Position numbers and translations under genes: made by a program. The notes under the pieces are model-generated. The model saw only the letters and a program-made list of their open reading frames with translations. It was not told the origin of the DNA and did not search any database. From an uncultured bacterium (GTDB lineage Bacteria > Verrucomicrobiota > Kiritimatiellia > RFP12 > CAIWXQ01), in contig CAIWXQ010000001.1 in assembly GCA_903916675.1 (NCBI GenBank), positions 217 through 64,216 on the forward strand: a stretch of 64,000 nucleotides of DNA. The letters are read 5' to 3'. Each line of letters opens with the position of its first letter. Position 1 is the stretch's first letter. Positions 1-7,981 of this stretch are shown here, in pieces.

Positions 1-1203
1 TGCAAGGACCAGGTGGGGCGGCTGCGCGAGGGCGCGGCTGGCAACGAAGCCGGCCAGCAGCATGGCGGCGGCGAAGGCAAAGAGGTAGTTGCGCGACAGG
101 GCGTGGTCGCGCAGGTAGGCGGCCACGGCTGGGCCGACCATGCCGGCTACGCCCCAGGCAGTCAGCACCAGCCCGTACGCGCGCGGCGTGGCAACCGGCC
201 CGTACAGATCGACGATCAGGGCCGGCATGGTGCCGAACCCGCCACCGTAGCAGAGGAGCACGGCGCAGACGCCGATGGCGAAGACCAACGGGTGCGTCGT
301 GGTCATCAGCAGCAGGAAGATGCCGACCTGCGCGAGCAGCAGCACGCGGAAGGTGATCAGGCTGCCGAGGTGGTCGGAGACGCGCCCCCAGATCAGCCGA
401 CCCAGGCCGTTGCAGAGCGAACTGAGTGCGATCAGCGTGGCACCCTGTGCCGCCAGCTGCTCCACGCTCCAGGTCGGATGCCGCGGCGACAGGAAATCCT
501 GGAAGAGCGGCGACTGGAAGGCGATGAAGACCACGCCGGCGGTGATGTTGCAGAAGAAGATTGTCCAGACGGCGATGAAGGAGCGCGACGGAAAAGGGTG
601 GCAGGGGGCCACGGGCGCGTTGGTGGTCGCGGCGCTTGGCGGGCGCGCCAGCAGCAGGGCCGCGGGGAGCCCCAGCGCCAGCAGGAGCAGTCCGGTGTCG
701 CGAAAAACGACCGGCAGGGCGTTGTGCGAGAGATGCATCAGGAACGGGGCCAGGAGCTTGGACATCAGCAGCGCGCCCAGGCCGAACCCCATCACCACGA
801 TGCCGGCGGCCAGCCCCTTGCGGTGGGGGAACCACCCCACCACCGTGGCCACGGGGGTCACATAGCCGAGCCCCAGGCCGATGCCGCCGACGATGCCGAA
901 AATAGCCTGCAGCAGCGGCAGGTTGCGCATCTGCAGCGCAACACTGGCGGCGATCCACGAGCCGGCGTAGAGCAGGATACCCAGCAGCGCCAGCGGCCGC
1001 GGACCGAAGCGCTTCAGCAGGGGCGCGGCCAGCGCGGCCGAGCCGCCGAGGCAGAAGAGCGCCAGGCTGAAGACCCAGGCCACCTGGGCGTTGTTCCAGC
1101 CGAAGGCCGCCATCAGTGGCTTCTGGAAAAAGCTGAAGGCGTACACTGTGCCGAGGCAGAGTTGCAGCACGGCGCCGGCCACGAGCACGCGCACGGCCTT
1201 CAT
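1..1203 (-). CDS. MFS transporter, oxalate/formate antiporter (OFA)-like; C-terminus runs off the window start
   Basis: I hand-translated the minus strand from its ATG (plus-strand CAT 1201-1203): MKAVRVLVAGAVLQLCLGTVYAFSFFQKPLMAAFGWNNAQVAWVFSLALF... The frame stays open for all 401 codons down to position 1 and has repeated hydrophobic segments. The N-terminal LGTVYAFSFFxxPL pattern is typical of OFA-family MFS proteins. The ORF track omits it because it has no in-window stop. Its ATG overlaps the etfA stop (ATGA). Confidence 0.8.
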   Translation of the reverse strand, partial: MKAVRVLVAGAVLQLCLGTVYAFSFFQKPLMAAFGWNNAQVAWVFSLALFCLGGSAALAAPLLKRFGPRPLALLGILLYAGSWIAASVALQMRNLPLLQAIFGIVGGIGLGLGYVTPVATVVGWFPHRKGLAAGIVVMGFGLGALLMSKLLAPFLMHLSHNALPVVFRDTGLLLLALGLPAALLLARPPSAATTNAPVAPCHPFPSRSFIAVWTIFFCNITAGVVFIAFQSPLFQDFLSPRHPTWSVEQLAAQGATLIALSSLCNGLGRLIWGRVSDHLGSLITFRVLLLAQVGIFLLLMTTTHPLVFAIGVCAVLLCYGGGFGTMPALIVDLYGPVATPRAYGLVLTAWGVAGMVGPAVAAYLRDHALSRNYLFAFAAAMLLAGFVASRALAQPPHLVLA

Positions 1204-2219
1204 GTGATGCTGACCTGGCGGATCAGTTCCGGCAGAACTTCGAAGAGGTCACCCACGACAGTAATGTCCGCCAGCTTCATCATGGAGGTGTCCGGATTCT
1301 TGTCGATGGCGATGATGCAATCGCACGACTGCATGCCGACCAGGTGCTGGATCTGCCCCGAGATGCCGCAGGCCAGGTAGACCTGCGACTGCACGGTCTG
1401 CCCGGTCTGGCCGACCTGGTGCGCGTACGGAATCCAGCCGGCGTCCACTGTGGCGCGGCTGGCGCCCACGGCGCCGCCGACCATGGTGGCGAAGCGGCGC
1501 AAAAGGTTGAACCCTTCCTTCCCCTTCACGCCGCGGCCGCCTGCGACGATGAAACGCGCGTCAGCCAGGTTCACCCCCGGCTCGCTGCTGTGGAAGACCT
1601 CGAGCACGCGTTTGCAGGCTGCGGCGGAGACCGTCGGCAGCGTCCCGCGGATCACGCGTCCACGGCGGGAAGCATCCGGCGGCCGCGCCGACATGACGCG
1701 CGGGCGGACCGTGGCCATCTGCGGCCGGAAGTTCGCGCAGTAGATCGTGGCCATCAGATTGCCGCCGAAGGCCGGACGCGTCTGGAGCAGGTTGCCGTTC
1801 TCCGGATCGATCGCCAGTTGGGTGCAGTCCGCGGTCAGGCCGGTGTTGGTCTGCACGGCCACGCGGGGGATCAGGGCGCGGCCGCGCGTGGTGGCACCGC
1901 AGAGCACGCTCTCGGGGCGGTGCTTTTCGATCAGCGCGCAGAGCACGCGCGCCTCGGTTTCGTCCACAAAGTTCGTGAAGGCGGGATCGTCCACCACCAG
2001 CACGATGTCGCTGCCGCAGGCGATCAGTTCGTTGAGCTGGCGGTCGGCGATGCCGGTGCCCAGCACCACGGTCCAGACCTCGCTCCGGCGGGCATCCGCC
2101 AGGGGGCGCGCGGCGCCGACGAGTTCCAGGGTCACGGGCTGAATCCGGCCCGACGACCACTCGGCCATCACCCAGATGTTGCGAAAATTCTCGCGTTCTT
2201 CCAGTTTGGCAAGCCGCAT
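1200..2219 (-). CDS. etfA: Electron transfer flavoprotein alpha subunit (EtfA/FixB type)
   Basis: 339-aa ORF. The C-terminal FAD-binding region FIVAGGRGVKGKEGF...ASRATVDAGWIPYAHQVGQTGQTVQSQVYLACGISGQIQHLVGM is the classic EtfA signature. It starts 9 nt after the etfB stop. Confidence 0.93.
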   Translation of the reverse strand: MRLAKLEERENFRNIWVMAEWSSGRIQPVTLELVGAARPLADARRSEVWTVVLGTGIADRQLNELIACGSDIVLVVDDPAFTNFVDETEARVLCALIEKHRPESVLCGATTRGRALIPRVAVQTNTGLTADCTQLAIDPENGNLLQTRPAFGGNLMATIYCANFRPQMATVRPRVMSARPPDASRRGRVIRGTLPTVSAAACKRVLEVFHSSEPGVNLADARFIVAGGRGVKGKEGFNLLRRFATMVGGAVGASRATVDAGWIPYAHQVGQTGQTVQSQVYLACGISGQIQHLVGMQSCDCIIAIDKNPDTSMMKLADITVVGDLFEVLPELIRQVSIT

Positions 2220-2228
2220 GACACTCTC

Positions 2229-6670: not shown

Positions 6671-6772
6671 GGTCGCCTCCGCATGCCGCCGCCCGGGCTG
6701 ACAGAGCCCGACGCGGACACATGCCTTGCATGATGACCTGCCGGGCAAGCGCGACGCAATCGTTCGTTGGTG

Positions 6773-7981
6773 CTATTTTCTGGTCAGTTCGTGCGGTGCT
6801 GTTGGCGCCGTGTGGCGATGCCGGTAGGCCAGCGGCGTCATCCCCCGTCGGCGGAGGAAGACTTTGCCGAAGTGGCTCGGATCGCGGAAGCCGCACTGGC
6901 GGGCGATCGCCGCGATGCTCAGGGCATTGCGGCGAAGCAGTTCGGTGGCGCGGTCGATGCGCATCTCCTGGAGAATGTCGCGGAAGCTCTGCCCGACCTT
7001 CTGCTGCAGCAGGTGCGAGAAGTGGCTGGGCGAGAGGCAGGCTACCTGCGCAACCTCGTCGCGCGAGAGGGCGCGGTCGAGGTGGAGCGACATATGGCGC
7101 AGCGCCTGCTGCAGGAGTACGGTGTTGGGATGGTCGCGATAGGCGCGGATGCCGTCCATCAGCCGCTCGAGCAGGCTGATCAGCCAGTGGCAGAGCTGCT
7201 CCTCGTCTTCGATTTCGGAGAGCGTGCGCAAGCCGTCGTAGTTCATGCCGAGCAGCTCGGTCGGCCGCGCCCCGGCCTCCACGGCCGCGCGGTAGAGCAT
7301 CACCACGAGTTCCAGCGTCAGGCTCTTGAGCAGGTCGAGGCGATTGCCGGCAAGGTGGTAGATGCCGACCAGCAGGCGGTTGAGGATCTCGCGCGCGGCA
7401 CGGCGGTCGCCGCGCTTGACCGTGGCCAGGAGCGCCGGCTCTTCGCGCAGGTAGGCTTCGCGGAGTGTGTCGTAGCCGCTCTCCTTGATGGCGTGGATGG
7501 CCTCGGCGCGCTCGCGCTCGCGGCGCGCAGCTTCGCGCTGCCGCAACAGGTGGGCGCGGTTGGTCAGGTCGCGCGCCAGCACCCGGTCCAGCAGATCCTC
7601 GGCGGCATTTGGCGCGCCATCGGCCGTGCCGCGGGCGCAGGCGGTGGCCGACAGCCCTCCGGTCACCAGTCCGCCCAGAAGCGTCTGGTTGCGCATGAGC
7701 GGGACGCCGCACGCCAACGTGCCGTCCGGTGCCAGGGCCAGCGACGGCTCGCCCCAGCGCCAGGCCTCCCATACCAGCCGGCGCCAGCACTCGCGCTGCG
7801 CTTCTGTGATGCCGCGGCGACCTCCCAGCACCGGCCGACCCTCCGGGTCCACGGCCACTAGCGCCACTCCCCAGCGGGTGTGGTAGTCCCGCCGCAACGC
7901 CGTGAAAACCACAGGATCGAGCGGCGCCGGAGACGGCGCCTTGCAGGATCGGGCGGGGGGCTTTTTGCGGCAAACGGTCAT
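6773..7981 (-). CDS. AraC-family transcriptional regulator with N-terminal sensor domain (PocR-like, tentative)
   Basis: 402-aa ORF. The C-terminal region has the dual HTH LSRDEVAQVACLSPSHFSHLLQQKVGQSFRDILQEMRIDRATELL...IAAIARQCGFRDPSHFGKVFLRRRGMTPLAYR. The N-terminal ~120 aa resemble the PocR layout but lack its cysteines. Confidence 0.85.
   Translation of the reverse strand: MTVCRKKPPARSCKAPSPAPLDPVVFTALRRDYHTRWGVALVAVDPEGRPVLGGRRGITEAQRECWRRLVWEAWRWGEPSLALAPDGTLACGVPLMRNQTLLGGLVTGGLSATACARGTADGAPNAAEDLLDRVLARDLTNRAHLLRQREAARRERERAEAIHAIKESGYDTLREAYLREEPALLATVKRGDRRAAREILNRLLVGIYHLAGNRLDLLKSLTLELVVMLYRAAVEAGARPTELLGMNYDGLRTLSEIEDEEQLCHWLISLLERLMDGIRAYRDHPNTVLLQQALRHMSLHLDRALSRDEVAQVACLSPSHFSHLLQQKVGQSFRDILQEMRIDRATELLRRNALSIAAIARQCGFRDPSHFGKVFLRRRGMTPLAYRHRHTAPTAPHELTRK

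Follow-up and report, generated by a model that had tools for sequence, protein, structure and literature searches.

How does methylenetetrahydrofolate reductase (MTHFR) exchange electrons with the carriers of an anaerobic cell? The electron partner of this enzyme is among the last open points in anaerobic one-carbon (C1) energetics, and an operon at one end of a 64,000-nt stretch of DNA from an uncultured bacterium of the Kiritimatiellia (Verrucomicrobiota; contig CAIWXQ010000001.1) raises the question in concrete form. There, a gene for a divergent MTHFR-family protein, here termed MetFL, is followed by etfB and etfA, which encode the two subunits of an electron-transferring flavoprotein (Etf). 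We use 'window' for the full 64,000-nt stretch; the operon genes all lie on its minus strand, at positions 1-7981.

We propose that MetFL and EtfBA may constitute a further, sixth type of MTHFR, bifurcating or confurcating, whose three genes would have been passed on together among five or more bacterial phyla. Driven by ferredoxin, it would convert methyl groups (such as those of quaternary amines and methoxy compounds) to formate plus ATP in non-acetogenic anaerobes, and it may be the missing MTHFR of acetogenic termite-gut spirochaetes. We put the probability of this joint reading at roughly 40%. Of its parts, a working partnership of MetFL and EtfBA as an Etf-dependent MTHFR is probable, while genuine bifurcation or confurcation with ferredoxin is a tentative assignment, somewhat short of an even chance.

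Domain calls in the window, made with Pfam and NCBIfam profiles, gave the following operon, listed in the direction of transcription.

6773-7981, minus strand: AraC-family transcriptional regulator, 402 aa (Pfam HTH_18 78 bits, HTH_AraC 56 bits), with the helix-turn-helix in the C-terminal part and no Pfam match in the N-terminal ~280 residues

5651-6670, minus strand: pterin-binding methyltransferase of the 'Pw' type, 339 aa (Pfam Pterin_bind 76.6 bits, cut-off 25.5)

3841-5637, minus strand: Fhs, formate--tetrahydrofolate ligase, 598 aa as the longest open reading frame (ORF) (Pfam FTHFS 759 bits)

3023-3841, minus strand: MetFL, divergent MTHFR-family TIM-barrel protein, 272 aa (Pfam MTHFR 49.6 bits)

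2229-3023, minus strand: EtfB, beta subunit of a bifurcating-type Etf by sequence, 264 aa (Pfam ETF 150.6 bits)

1200-2219, minus strand: EtfA, alpha subunit, 339 aa (Pfam ETF 152.1 bits and ETF_alpha 116.1 bits)

1-1203, minus strand: major facilitator superfamily (MFS) transporter, monocarboxylate/OFA-like, cut by the window edge (Pfam MFS_1 105.6 bits)

Identical contigs from other samples give the MFS protein a full length of 404 aa, and gene callers on identical contigs place the Fhs start at 5610 (589 aa); Fhs passes the NCBIfam equivalog PRK13507 (1046 bits, cut-off 938). A first, sequence-only reading of this DNA had described the same gene order, and coordinates and domains bear it out, as does the sequence for the junctions it had reported: TGATG between fhs and metFL (stop TGA 3843-3841, ATG 3841-3839, one base in common), TGATG again between metFL and etfB (stop TGA 3025-3023, ATG 3023-3021, one base in common), and ATGA between etfA and the MFS gene (stop TGA 1202-1200, ATG 1203-1201, a 4-base overlap). 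The spacing of etfB and etfA is 9 nt, and AGGAG precedes the etfA start. The two EtfB strings it had quoted, CGKQAVDGDTAQVGPGIAAHL and RAFGGSDTWATS, are both present in the window protein. Its list of missing partners also stood: MetV, HdrABC/MvhD, RnfC, FolD, a corrinoid protein and CODH/ACS (carbon monoxide dehydrogenase with acetyl-CoA synthase) were not found in the window by tblastn or Pfam. The Pfam search covered 27 window proteins (7 operon proteins and 20 further large ORFs) without turning up a domain of MetV (MTHFR_C), Hdr, RnfC or CODH/ACS, and Pfam scans of the operon found no Nuo-type protein. A whole-window Rfam scan returned nothing at gathering thresholds.

On an identical contig (L001, 7153-8118) the MFS gene is followed by an IS110-family transposase gene that reads the other way, which makes the MFS gene the last of the operon; a consensus scan of positions 1-8600 for sigma-70 promoters and terminators gave no guide to the operon limits in this DNA of 67% G+C. 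The transposase lies just past the left edge of the window, and the operon thus borders a mobile element in this genome.

Operon genes often overlap by a few bases, and these junctions taken by themselves show little; what makes the arrangement more than chance is that etfB follows metFL in nearly all related loci. A scan of 185,579 species, each represented by a single genome, with patterns drawn from the MetFL alignment found a MetFL relative in 285 genomes; the locus counts below refer to the best 80 of these 285 relatives. In these loci the identities to the window proteins are 65-82% for MetFL, 59-77% for EtfB and 56-72% for EtfA. The gene directly 3' of metFL is etfB in 72 of the 73 loci with room for it (median gap 24 nt; a 4-nt overlap in 9 loci), and etfA comes next in 63 of the 64 loci with room for that. 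The adjacency of metF and etfBA that the window had suggested is therefore kept in relatives from several phyla. Distance matrices of MetFL, EtfB and EtfA are correlated (r 0.73-0.77, Mantel p 0.001; EtfB versus EtfA 0.88), which shows that the genes travel together, contact between the proteins not being proven thereby.

The closest carriers (73-82%) are metagenome-assembled genomes (MAGs) labelled Lentisphaerales and 'Akkermansia' (Verrucomicrobiota). Further carriers are labelled as Bacillota (Clostridia and others, in large number), Spirochaetes (Treponema and others, with termite-gut MAGs among them), Atribacterota, Limnochordia and Erysipelotrichaceae; one is a 'Deltaproteobacteria' MAG. 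Clostridium thermosuccinogenes is a cultured carrier, which makes the biochemistry feasible; its MetFL is annotated as a 'hypothetical protein' (CDQ84_02165), and in the cluster of loci to which it belongs (L087-L089, 10001-12826) the core stands between GH39/GH5 glycosidase genes, accompanied by a sugar ABC transporter. A pyruvate:ferredoxin oxidoreductase is encoded 5 kb beyond that core. No match to MetFL was found by tblastn in 72,556 plasmids.

A reading in which etfBA serve another dehydrogenase, for example a lactate dehydrogenase with a lactate-like MFS transporter, and adjoin metFL only incidentally, is hardly credible in the light of this linkage. Ldh-EtfAB operons with a lactate permease are known, and the window MFS protein has the SfMCT lactate transporter model as its best match; against this, 72 of 73 loci preserve metFL-etfB-etfA as a string, most of them without an MFS gene. 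We rejected the lactate reading since the operon contains no GlcD-type dehydrogenase, and the identical contigs run from the MFS gene into the IS110 transposase.

What kind of Etf is encoded here? We judged the type by the separation of bit scores against solved structures in the PDB, standing in for a tree. The five best solved structures were CarDE, Clostridium difficile Bcd-Etf, Thermotoga maritima EtfABCX, LctBC and the Acidaminococcus fermentans Etf. EtfB scored 231.6 bits with CarD, 208.5 with 5ol2_B, 204.8 with 7koe_A, 202.4 with LctB and 201.5 with 4kpu_B, against 95-106 bits with the non-bifurcating human, Paracoccus and Methylophilus ETFs. EtfA scored 309 bits with CarE, 286 with 5ol2_A, 285 with 7koe_B, 277 with 4kpu_A and 244 with LctC, against 117-143 bits with the same three respiratory proteins. 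Both subunits thus score about twice as high against bifurcating as against respiratory Etfs (201-309 versus 95-143 bits), and the sequence-only assignment to the bifurcating rather than the respiratory type holds on this measure. In EtfB, GKQAVDGDTAQVGP lines up with GRQAIDGDTAQVG in both CarD and the C. difficile protein and varies hardly at all among 67 orthologues, in which CG.QA.DGDTAQ.GPG is invariant. The motif G(K/R)QA(I/V)DGDTAQVGP, at the site of the second flavin adenine dinucleotide (FAD), is present in the window protein; the corresponding respiratory motif is presumably DDDCNQTGQ. The EtfA alignment begins at CarE residue 66, so the N-terminal ferredoxin domain of CarE and LctC is missing and the protein resembles a Bcd-type EtfA. 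Judged by its residues and scores, EtfBA is of the bifurcating (group 2) type.

MetFL is the less familiar partner. It matches Pfam MTHFR (PF02219; cut-off 24) over profile positions 9-182 of 287 only, and falls far below the canonical MetF equivalogs (TIGR00676, 37.6 bits against 293.7; TIGR00677, 37.2 against 310), as does the orthologue in locus L004 (41.7 and 44.7 bits). Its only PDB sequence match, a weak one, was yeast MTHFR (E 2e-4). An AlphaFold2 model built on an alignment of 30 family members (predicted local distance difference test 87.9, predicted template-modelling score 0.87) placed the protein more firmly: the 19 best PDB matches in Foldseek were all MTHFRs (TM-score 0.58-0.71, 17-22% identity), from Thermus thermophilus, yeast, human, Chaetomium thermophilum, Haemophilus influenzae and mycobacteria, with the FAD-dependent enzymes first and the FAD-independent mycobacterial ones after. 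An hhalign comparison of the MetFL family with canonical MetF gave a probability of 99.8% (E 6e-30). These comparisons and the model agree in assigning MetFL to the MTHFR family and fold, far from canonical MetF.

Within that fold MetFL forms, on the evidence of database searches, a separate and tightly conserved clade of proteins of ~265 residues. It comprises ~1,200 clusters at 90% identity, all ~65-92% identical to the window protein. An exhaustive HMMER pass over 1.84 billion representatives returned only 25 proteins below E 1e-30 (43-58% identity), and canonical MTHFRs were reached only around E 1e-5.

Residues were mapped with the hhalign alignment; the E. coli MetF sequence used has its landmark residues at the published numbers. 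MetFL E13, D109 and Q180 correspond to the catalytic and folate-site residues E28, D120 and Q183 of E. coli MetF and are invariant in the 30 family members; the equivalent of F223 is ambiguous owing to a 22-residue alignment gap there. The expectation that MetFL would keep the residues of a genuine MetF was thus borne out for the catalytic Glu, Asp and Gln and only in part for the FAD contacts, of which T59, H88, D120, R171 and K172 (E. coli numbering) are retained. Among the cysteines only C243 is invariant, with C44, C46 and C95 varying. An Fe-S cluster in MetFL taking the place of MetV was considered and rejected as unlikely because there is no invariant set of four cysteines.

Could MetFL be a TIM-barrel oxidoreductase of MTHFR fold that acts on something other than folate, with Etf as its redox partner? 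The 17-22% identity of the fold matches and the 37.6 bits against an equivalog cut-off of 293.7 leave room for this, and a 45%-identical relative belongs to a cluster with glycerol kinase, a glycerol-3-phosphate dehydrogenase-like protein and etfBA. Yet the MTHFR catalytic Glu, Asp and Gln are invariant, the neighbours of MetFL in the window operon (pterin methyltransferase, Fhs) both use tetrahydrofolate (THF), and the recurrent neighbours in the close family are all THF enzymes (pterin methyltransferase, Fhs, FolD), so that we regard a non-folate substrate as very unlikely for MetFL. The relative just mentioned (P0122, in L091 1-6813) ends a cluster of etfB, etfA, a GlpA-like dehydrogenase, Pyr_redox_2, DUF1667 and glycerol kinase genes, from which folate genes are absent; members of the wider MetFL-like clade may partner Etf in other settings or act on another substrate.

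In the enzyme that we propose, MetFL would be the folate-binding catalytic subunit, interconverting 5,10-methylene-THF and 5-methyl-THF, within a heterotrimeric or higher-order MetFL-EtfB-EtfA complex; we place the three in one complex because the operon offers no other redox partner for MetFL and no other client for EtfBA. At the MetFL active site the folate would gain or lose a hydride. Single electrons would be exchanged between that site and the FAD that EtfA carries on its swinging domain II, passing flavin to flavin between MetFL and the mobile EtfA FAD, and EtfB would contribute the second FAD, the bifurcating one, as well as the NADH site. Analogous enzymes point to 2 NADH + Fd(ox) + methylene-THF <-> 2 NAD+ + Fd(red) + methyl-THF as the likely reaction, where Fd is ferredoxin. 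The relevant potentials are -200 mV for methylene-/methyl-THF, -320 mV for NAD, ~-420 mV for ferredoxin and ~-190 mV for pyruvate/lactate. From such textbook values the standard free-energy change would be only a few kJ/mol, near equilibrium, and the reaction could for that reason run either way.

The same three-protein complex might also work without bifurcating, with EtfBA passing electrons between NADH and MetFL and no ferredoxin reduced or consumed. Gene linkage fits this equally well, the drive from NADH to methylene-THF is only ~120 mV by textbook potentials, small for ferredoxin reduction, and EtfB and EtfA score high (213 and 307 bits) against NCBIfam models of the Etf of acryloyl-CoA reductase, an enzyme reported not to bifurcate. 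An ordinary MetF, however, carries out the reaction with NADH alone, which would leave the two added subunits without benefit; the features of the bifurcating clade that we tested are all strongly conserved; and oxidative reduction of NAD+ by methyl-THF would be endergonic without a second driving reaction. We therefore hold a non-bifurcating complex to be unlikely.

The genes around the core bear on what a bifurcating MetFL-EtfBA enzyme would be for. They shuffle their order around an unchanged metFL-etfB-etfA core, and their counts are lower bounds, the locus contigs often being short (median 12.7 kb).

Pterin methyltransferase, within 10 kb of metFL: 58 of 80 loci

Fhs: 36 of 80 loci

FocA-like FNT channel: 17 of 80 loci

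Corrinoid protein: 13 of 80 loci

RACo reactivase: 12 of 80 loci

FolD: 10 of 80 loci

AraC-like regulator: 10 of 80 loci

URO-D/MtaA-type methyltransferase: 5 of 80 loci

MFS transporter: 3 of 80 loci

No MetV, RnfC, Hdr or Nuo-type partner was seen beside metFL among the annotated recurrent neighbours in related loci. One spirochaete operon, Pw-FolD-Fhs-MetFL-EtfB-EtfA(-MFS), holds all steps from methyl-THF to formate, and an Atribacteria operon runs AraC-TRAP transporter-PrpD-like-MttB-family methyltransferase-corrinoid protein-MetFL-EtfB-EtfA-methyltransferase II (MT II)-Fhs-RACo. In several Clostridia MAGs (L049, 7221-9790; L070; L024; L059) a URO-D/MtaA-type methyltransferase-thioredoxin fusion (~550 aa) and then a CobW-family GTPase precede the core, with no corrinoid protein in view. 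Support for the methyl-to-formate route that the window alone had suggested comes from relatives of this kind, whose core keeps company with methyltransferases (MttB-family or URO-D), a corrinoid protein, RACo, the THF enzymes FolD and Fhs, and FocA-like channels.

The pterin proteins come in two forms. The window Pw protein is a TIM barrel resembling methyl-THF:corrinoid methyltransferases, and its best solved relatives are the methyl-THF:corrinoid methyltransferase MeTr/AcsE 2e7f (109 bits) and the Desulfitobacterium hafniense O-demethylase MT II 4o0q (99 bits), and relative to MeTr/AcsE it has a ~70-residue insertion (~residues 17-85) after the first strand. Orthologues occur in L007-L011, L038, L039, L054, L064 and others, together with a distinct type of Fhs (71-84% identity to the window Fhs, against 44-51% in Bacillota and Atribacteria loci); insertion and Fhs type are common to the PVC-group and spirochaete loci. 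The short Pc form is closest to D. hafniense MT II 4o0q (233 bits) and passes the methyl-THF:corrinoid methyltransferase model PRK07535 (337-367 bits, cut-off 259). Neither the window protein (101 bits) nor any relative (102-174 bits) passes the AcsE-specific model NF040758 (cut-off 370).

The description of the window transporter as 'OFA-type' proved loosely right: it scores 152.9 bits with TIGR00890 (cut-off 374.85) and 134.8 bits with TIGR04259 (cut-off 335), a lactate-transporter model ranks highest, and all scores stay below the curated cut-offs. MFS orthologues follow etfA in L007 and L042. We infer formate as its substrate from gene context and mainly because an unrelated channel, the FocA-like FNT protein (230 bits to the FocA model), takes its place in other loci.

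Read together, the operon would bring the MetFL-EtfBA enzyme, a methyl-THF:corrinoid methyltransferase, Fhs and a transporter of monocarboxylates under one regulator of the AraC type, in a module that ties corrinoid-bound methyl groups to formate. The route would lead from methyl-THF to methylene-THF and, by way of a FolD encoded elsewhere in the genome, through formyl-THF to formate. Run oxidatively, each methyl group would yield 2 NADH at MetFL at the cost of 1 reduced ferredoxin, 1 NAD(P)H at FolD, 1 ATP at Fhs and 1 exported formate. In view of the links to substrate-specific methyltransferases, to a corrinoid reactivase, to transporters for substrates and to regulators of the AraC type, we favour the oxidative, confurcating (catabolic) direction and give it about an even chance; a direction that is reductive or assimilatory is somewhat less likely.

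One reductive reading is that imported formate is carried to methyl-THF and on to a corrinoid protein for acetyl-CoA or another sink, with the Etf complex reducing ferredoxin. Termite-gut Treponema MAGs fit it, since they cluster a divergent methyltransferase, MetFL, EtfB, EtfA, Fhs, an FNT channel resembling FocA, and FolD in that order, and Treponema primitia is reported to be without metF and metV (PMC5039349). Against it, neither the window nor any of the examined loci showed a CODH/ACS gene, no pterin methyltransferase reaches the AcsE cut-off (101-174 versus 370 bits), and T. primitia was not among the 120 best matches listed in either MetFL protein search. As an account of the module we consider it improbable; the MetFL-EtfBA of related termite-gut treponemes is nonetheless a candidate for the missing MTHFR of T. 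primitia.

A second alternative is anabolic: MetFL-EtfBA would be the housekeeping MTHFR of anaerobes without canonical MetF or MetFV, making methyl-THF for methionine from formate-derived C1 units, with the pterin protein as the folate module of a split methionine synthase. Many loci hold the core alone among housekeeping or sugar genes, such as L004, where it lies between pheST and mutS2, and the C. thermosuccinogenes locus. Two spirochaete loci (L064, 1045-9851; L062, 1126-6009) have the Pw protein and a homocysteine S-methyltransferase-like protein beside metFL-etfBA, and the first adds a corrinoid protein and RACo, so that it has the components of a cobalamin-dependent methionine synthase in split form, plus reactivase. 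In L012 (6959-10798) a SAM riboswitch (92 bits) precedes a metNIQ-like ABC transporter operon ~3 kb upstream of metFL, and that operon ends ~290 nt before metFL. This was the sole link to methionine regulation in the 33 related loci, mostly labelled Bacillota or Clostridia, that we scanned with Rfam; L013 has a SAM riboswitch 8 kb from metFL.

On the other side, none of the 33 loci has a SAM riboswitch directly upstream of metFL, a three-subunit, energy-coupled enzyme would be needless for a low-flux biosynthetic step, and the MttB-family and URO-D methyltransferases, substrate transporters, AraC regulators and formate channels look catabolic. On balance a housekeeping role seems rather unlikely. 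SAM-riboswitch control was dropped as a marker of a methionine-biosynthesis role, and no THF or cobalamin riboswitch was found in the 33 loci.

Several observations weigh against a catabolic, ferredoxin-coupled MetFL-EtfBA enzyme. The 64-kb window gave no tblastn match to FolD, a corrinoid protein, RACo or a URO-D methyltransferase, leaving it without a corrinoid protein, a methyl-donor methyltransferase and FolD. The window Pw protein reaches 182 bits with PRK07535, short of the cut-off, and the MFS protein is best matched by SfMCT, a model for lactate transporters, at 277 bits (cut-off 320). In MetFL three FAD contacts are changed (Y60 to D, R118 to S or T, Y152 to N), and the protein could be flavin-free like the mycobacterial MTHFRs. 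A bifurcating-type Etf sequence is no guarantee of ferredoxin coupling, the acryloyl-CoA reductase-Etf of Clostridium propionicum being the usual counter-example. The sole exception to the conserved linkage, L076 (10001-13710), has metFL-fhs-FNT and no Etf gene in 20 kb, and the correlated distances of the three proteins could come from shared descent alone. The three-gene core stands alone by sugar-utilisation genes in many loci, C. thermosuccinogenes included, which fits a housekeeping role too, and the termite-gut clusters resemble the methyl branch of the Wood-Ljungdahl pathway.

Elsewhere in the window, two tandem HMGL-like/LeuA_dimer genes (8390-11740, plus strand; ~507 and ~527 aa), probably 2-isopropylmalate synthase and citramalate synthase, diverge from the AraC gene of the operon. 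Upstream of leuA (start ~8513), at 8094-8310 on the plus strand, lies a 50-codon ORF with the leucine-rich stretch ILLPGLLLGL; after it, and immediately ahead of the gene for 2-isopropylmalate synthase, come a strong hairpin and a T-run (CCCGCC...GGCGGGTTTTTTGTTTT). The arrangement resembles a leucine leader-peptide attenuator, although it has no match in Rfam. Further on, a PocR-PAS-histidine kinase-receiver hybrid sensor is encoded at 19813-22167 on the minus strand (region 19813-27203), and beside it, in a plus-strand string of four, are genes for a thiolase, a 3-hydroxyacyl-CoA dehydrogenase, a CoA-transferase and an iron alcohol dehydrogenase, with no acyl-CoA dehydrogenase nearby.

With the conserved metFL-etfB-etfA unit, present in hundreds of species, the hypothesis of Etf coupling to MTHFR gains a concrete genetic candidate. 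Current annotation calls MetFL an NAD(P)H MTHFR or labels it 'hypothetical', and metabolic reconstructions misassign its cofactor or miss it for that reason. If the enzyme bifurcates, it would add a new substrate class to the short list of Etf-based bifurcating enzymes, explain NAD+-linked oxidation of methyl-THF in fermenters, and provide a compact module from methyl group to formate plus ATP for the turnover of betaine, methoxy-aromatics and methanol in sediments, digesters and guts, as well as a candidate for the MTHFR reported missing from T. primitia (PMC5039349).

How does this unit compare with known systems? Its nearest counterparts on the electron-transfer side are Bcd-EtfAB (5ol2, 4kpu), CarCDE (6fah) and Ldh-EtfAB/LctBCD (7qh2), which share the Etf clade (201-309 bits) and likewise have their genes adjoining that of a partner of a flavoenzyme family. 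Here a TIM barrel of the MTHFR fold takes the place of the acyl-CoA dehydrogenase or GlcD-type flavoprotein, and EtfA lacks the N-terminal ferredoxin-like domain of CarE and LctC. Ldh-EtfAB is the closest in energetics, as the methylene-/methyl-THF couple has nearly the same potential as pyruvate/lactate. In PMC9232219, reduced ferredoxin is described as driving endergonic, NAD+-linked lactate oxidation by confurcation, and the near equality of the two substrate couples is the reason why that logic would carry over to MetFL-EtfBA.

Among multi-subunit MTHFRs the reaction is the same, as are the problem (coupling a -200 mV couple to the carriers of the cell), the MTHFR-family catalytic subunit and the clustering with C1-THF genes. 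The types recognised by Yi et al. 2021 (PMC8515935) are the E. coli type, the flavin-free mycobacterial type, MetFV (2S), MetFV-RnfC2 (3S), MetFV-HdrABC-MvhD (6S) and a putative NuoEFG-MetFV 'X', with no Etf type in that classification. There, the ferredoxin-dependent MetFV reaction is regarded as uneconomic in terms of energy conservation, and the Hdr-type enzyme is said to have a second acceptor that is unknown. Etf coupling had been proposed earlier and was set aside because each etfAB set of Clostridium ljungdahlii has its own dehydrogenase and no free Etf lies beside metF in model acetogens (PMC8515935). The locus described here differs from the MetFV types in having no MetV, Hdr, RnfC or Nuo module, its electron module being EtfBA. 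In line with the view that a metF-etfBA unit had so far only been hypothesised, we found no description of one in the full-text literature, a coverage that leaves out most subscription journals.

On the pathway side, the ligM-metF-ligH cluster of Sphingobium sp. SYK-6, in which ligH encodes a formyl-THF synthetase, offers a parallel. Another is the chloromethane pathway of Methylobacterium extorquens CM4, CmuA/CmuB-MetF2-FolD-PurU (PMC3621897). In both, as proposed here, a corrinoid- or THF-dependent methyltransferase feeds methyl-THF to a dedicated MetF paralogue run backwards, and in the chloromethane pathway the route goes on via FolD to formate. Those MetF proteins, however, are single-subunit and canonical, in respiring hosts where oxidation is pulled by respiration with no Etf involved, and the chloromethane pathway ends in PurU, which hydrolyses formyl-THF with no ATP, where the window has Fhs.

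The O-demethylases of Desulfitobacterium and Acetobacterium, MtgABC and the MttB-family quaternary-amine systems are similar in that the pterin gene next to the core resembles the MT II type and that relatives of the window locus also carry an MttB-family or URO-D methyltransferase, corrinoid protein and RACo. In those systems methyl-THF enters the Wood-Ljungdahl pathway of acetogens or respiration, whereas here MetFL-EtfBA, Fhs and sometimes FolD and a formate channel share one cluster, with no CODH/ACS seen and, in the window, no methyl-donor half. For the acetogen T. primitia, Shin et al. 2016 (PMC5039349) left the replacement for metF and metV unknown. Set beside all these systems, metFL-etfB-etfA is a new subunit architecture assembled from two known kinds of module, widespread and, until now, mis-annotated or unannotated.

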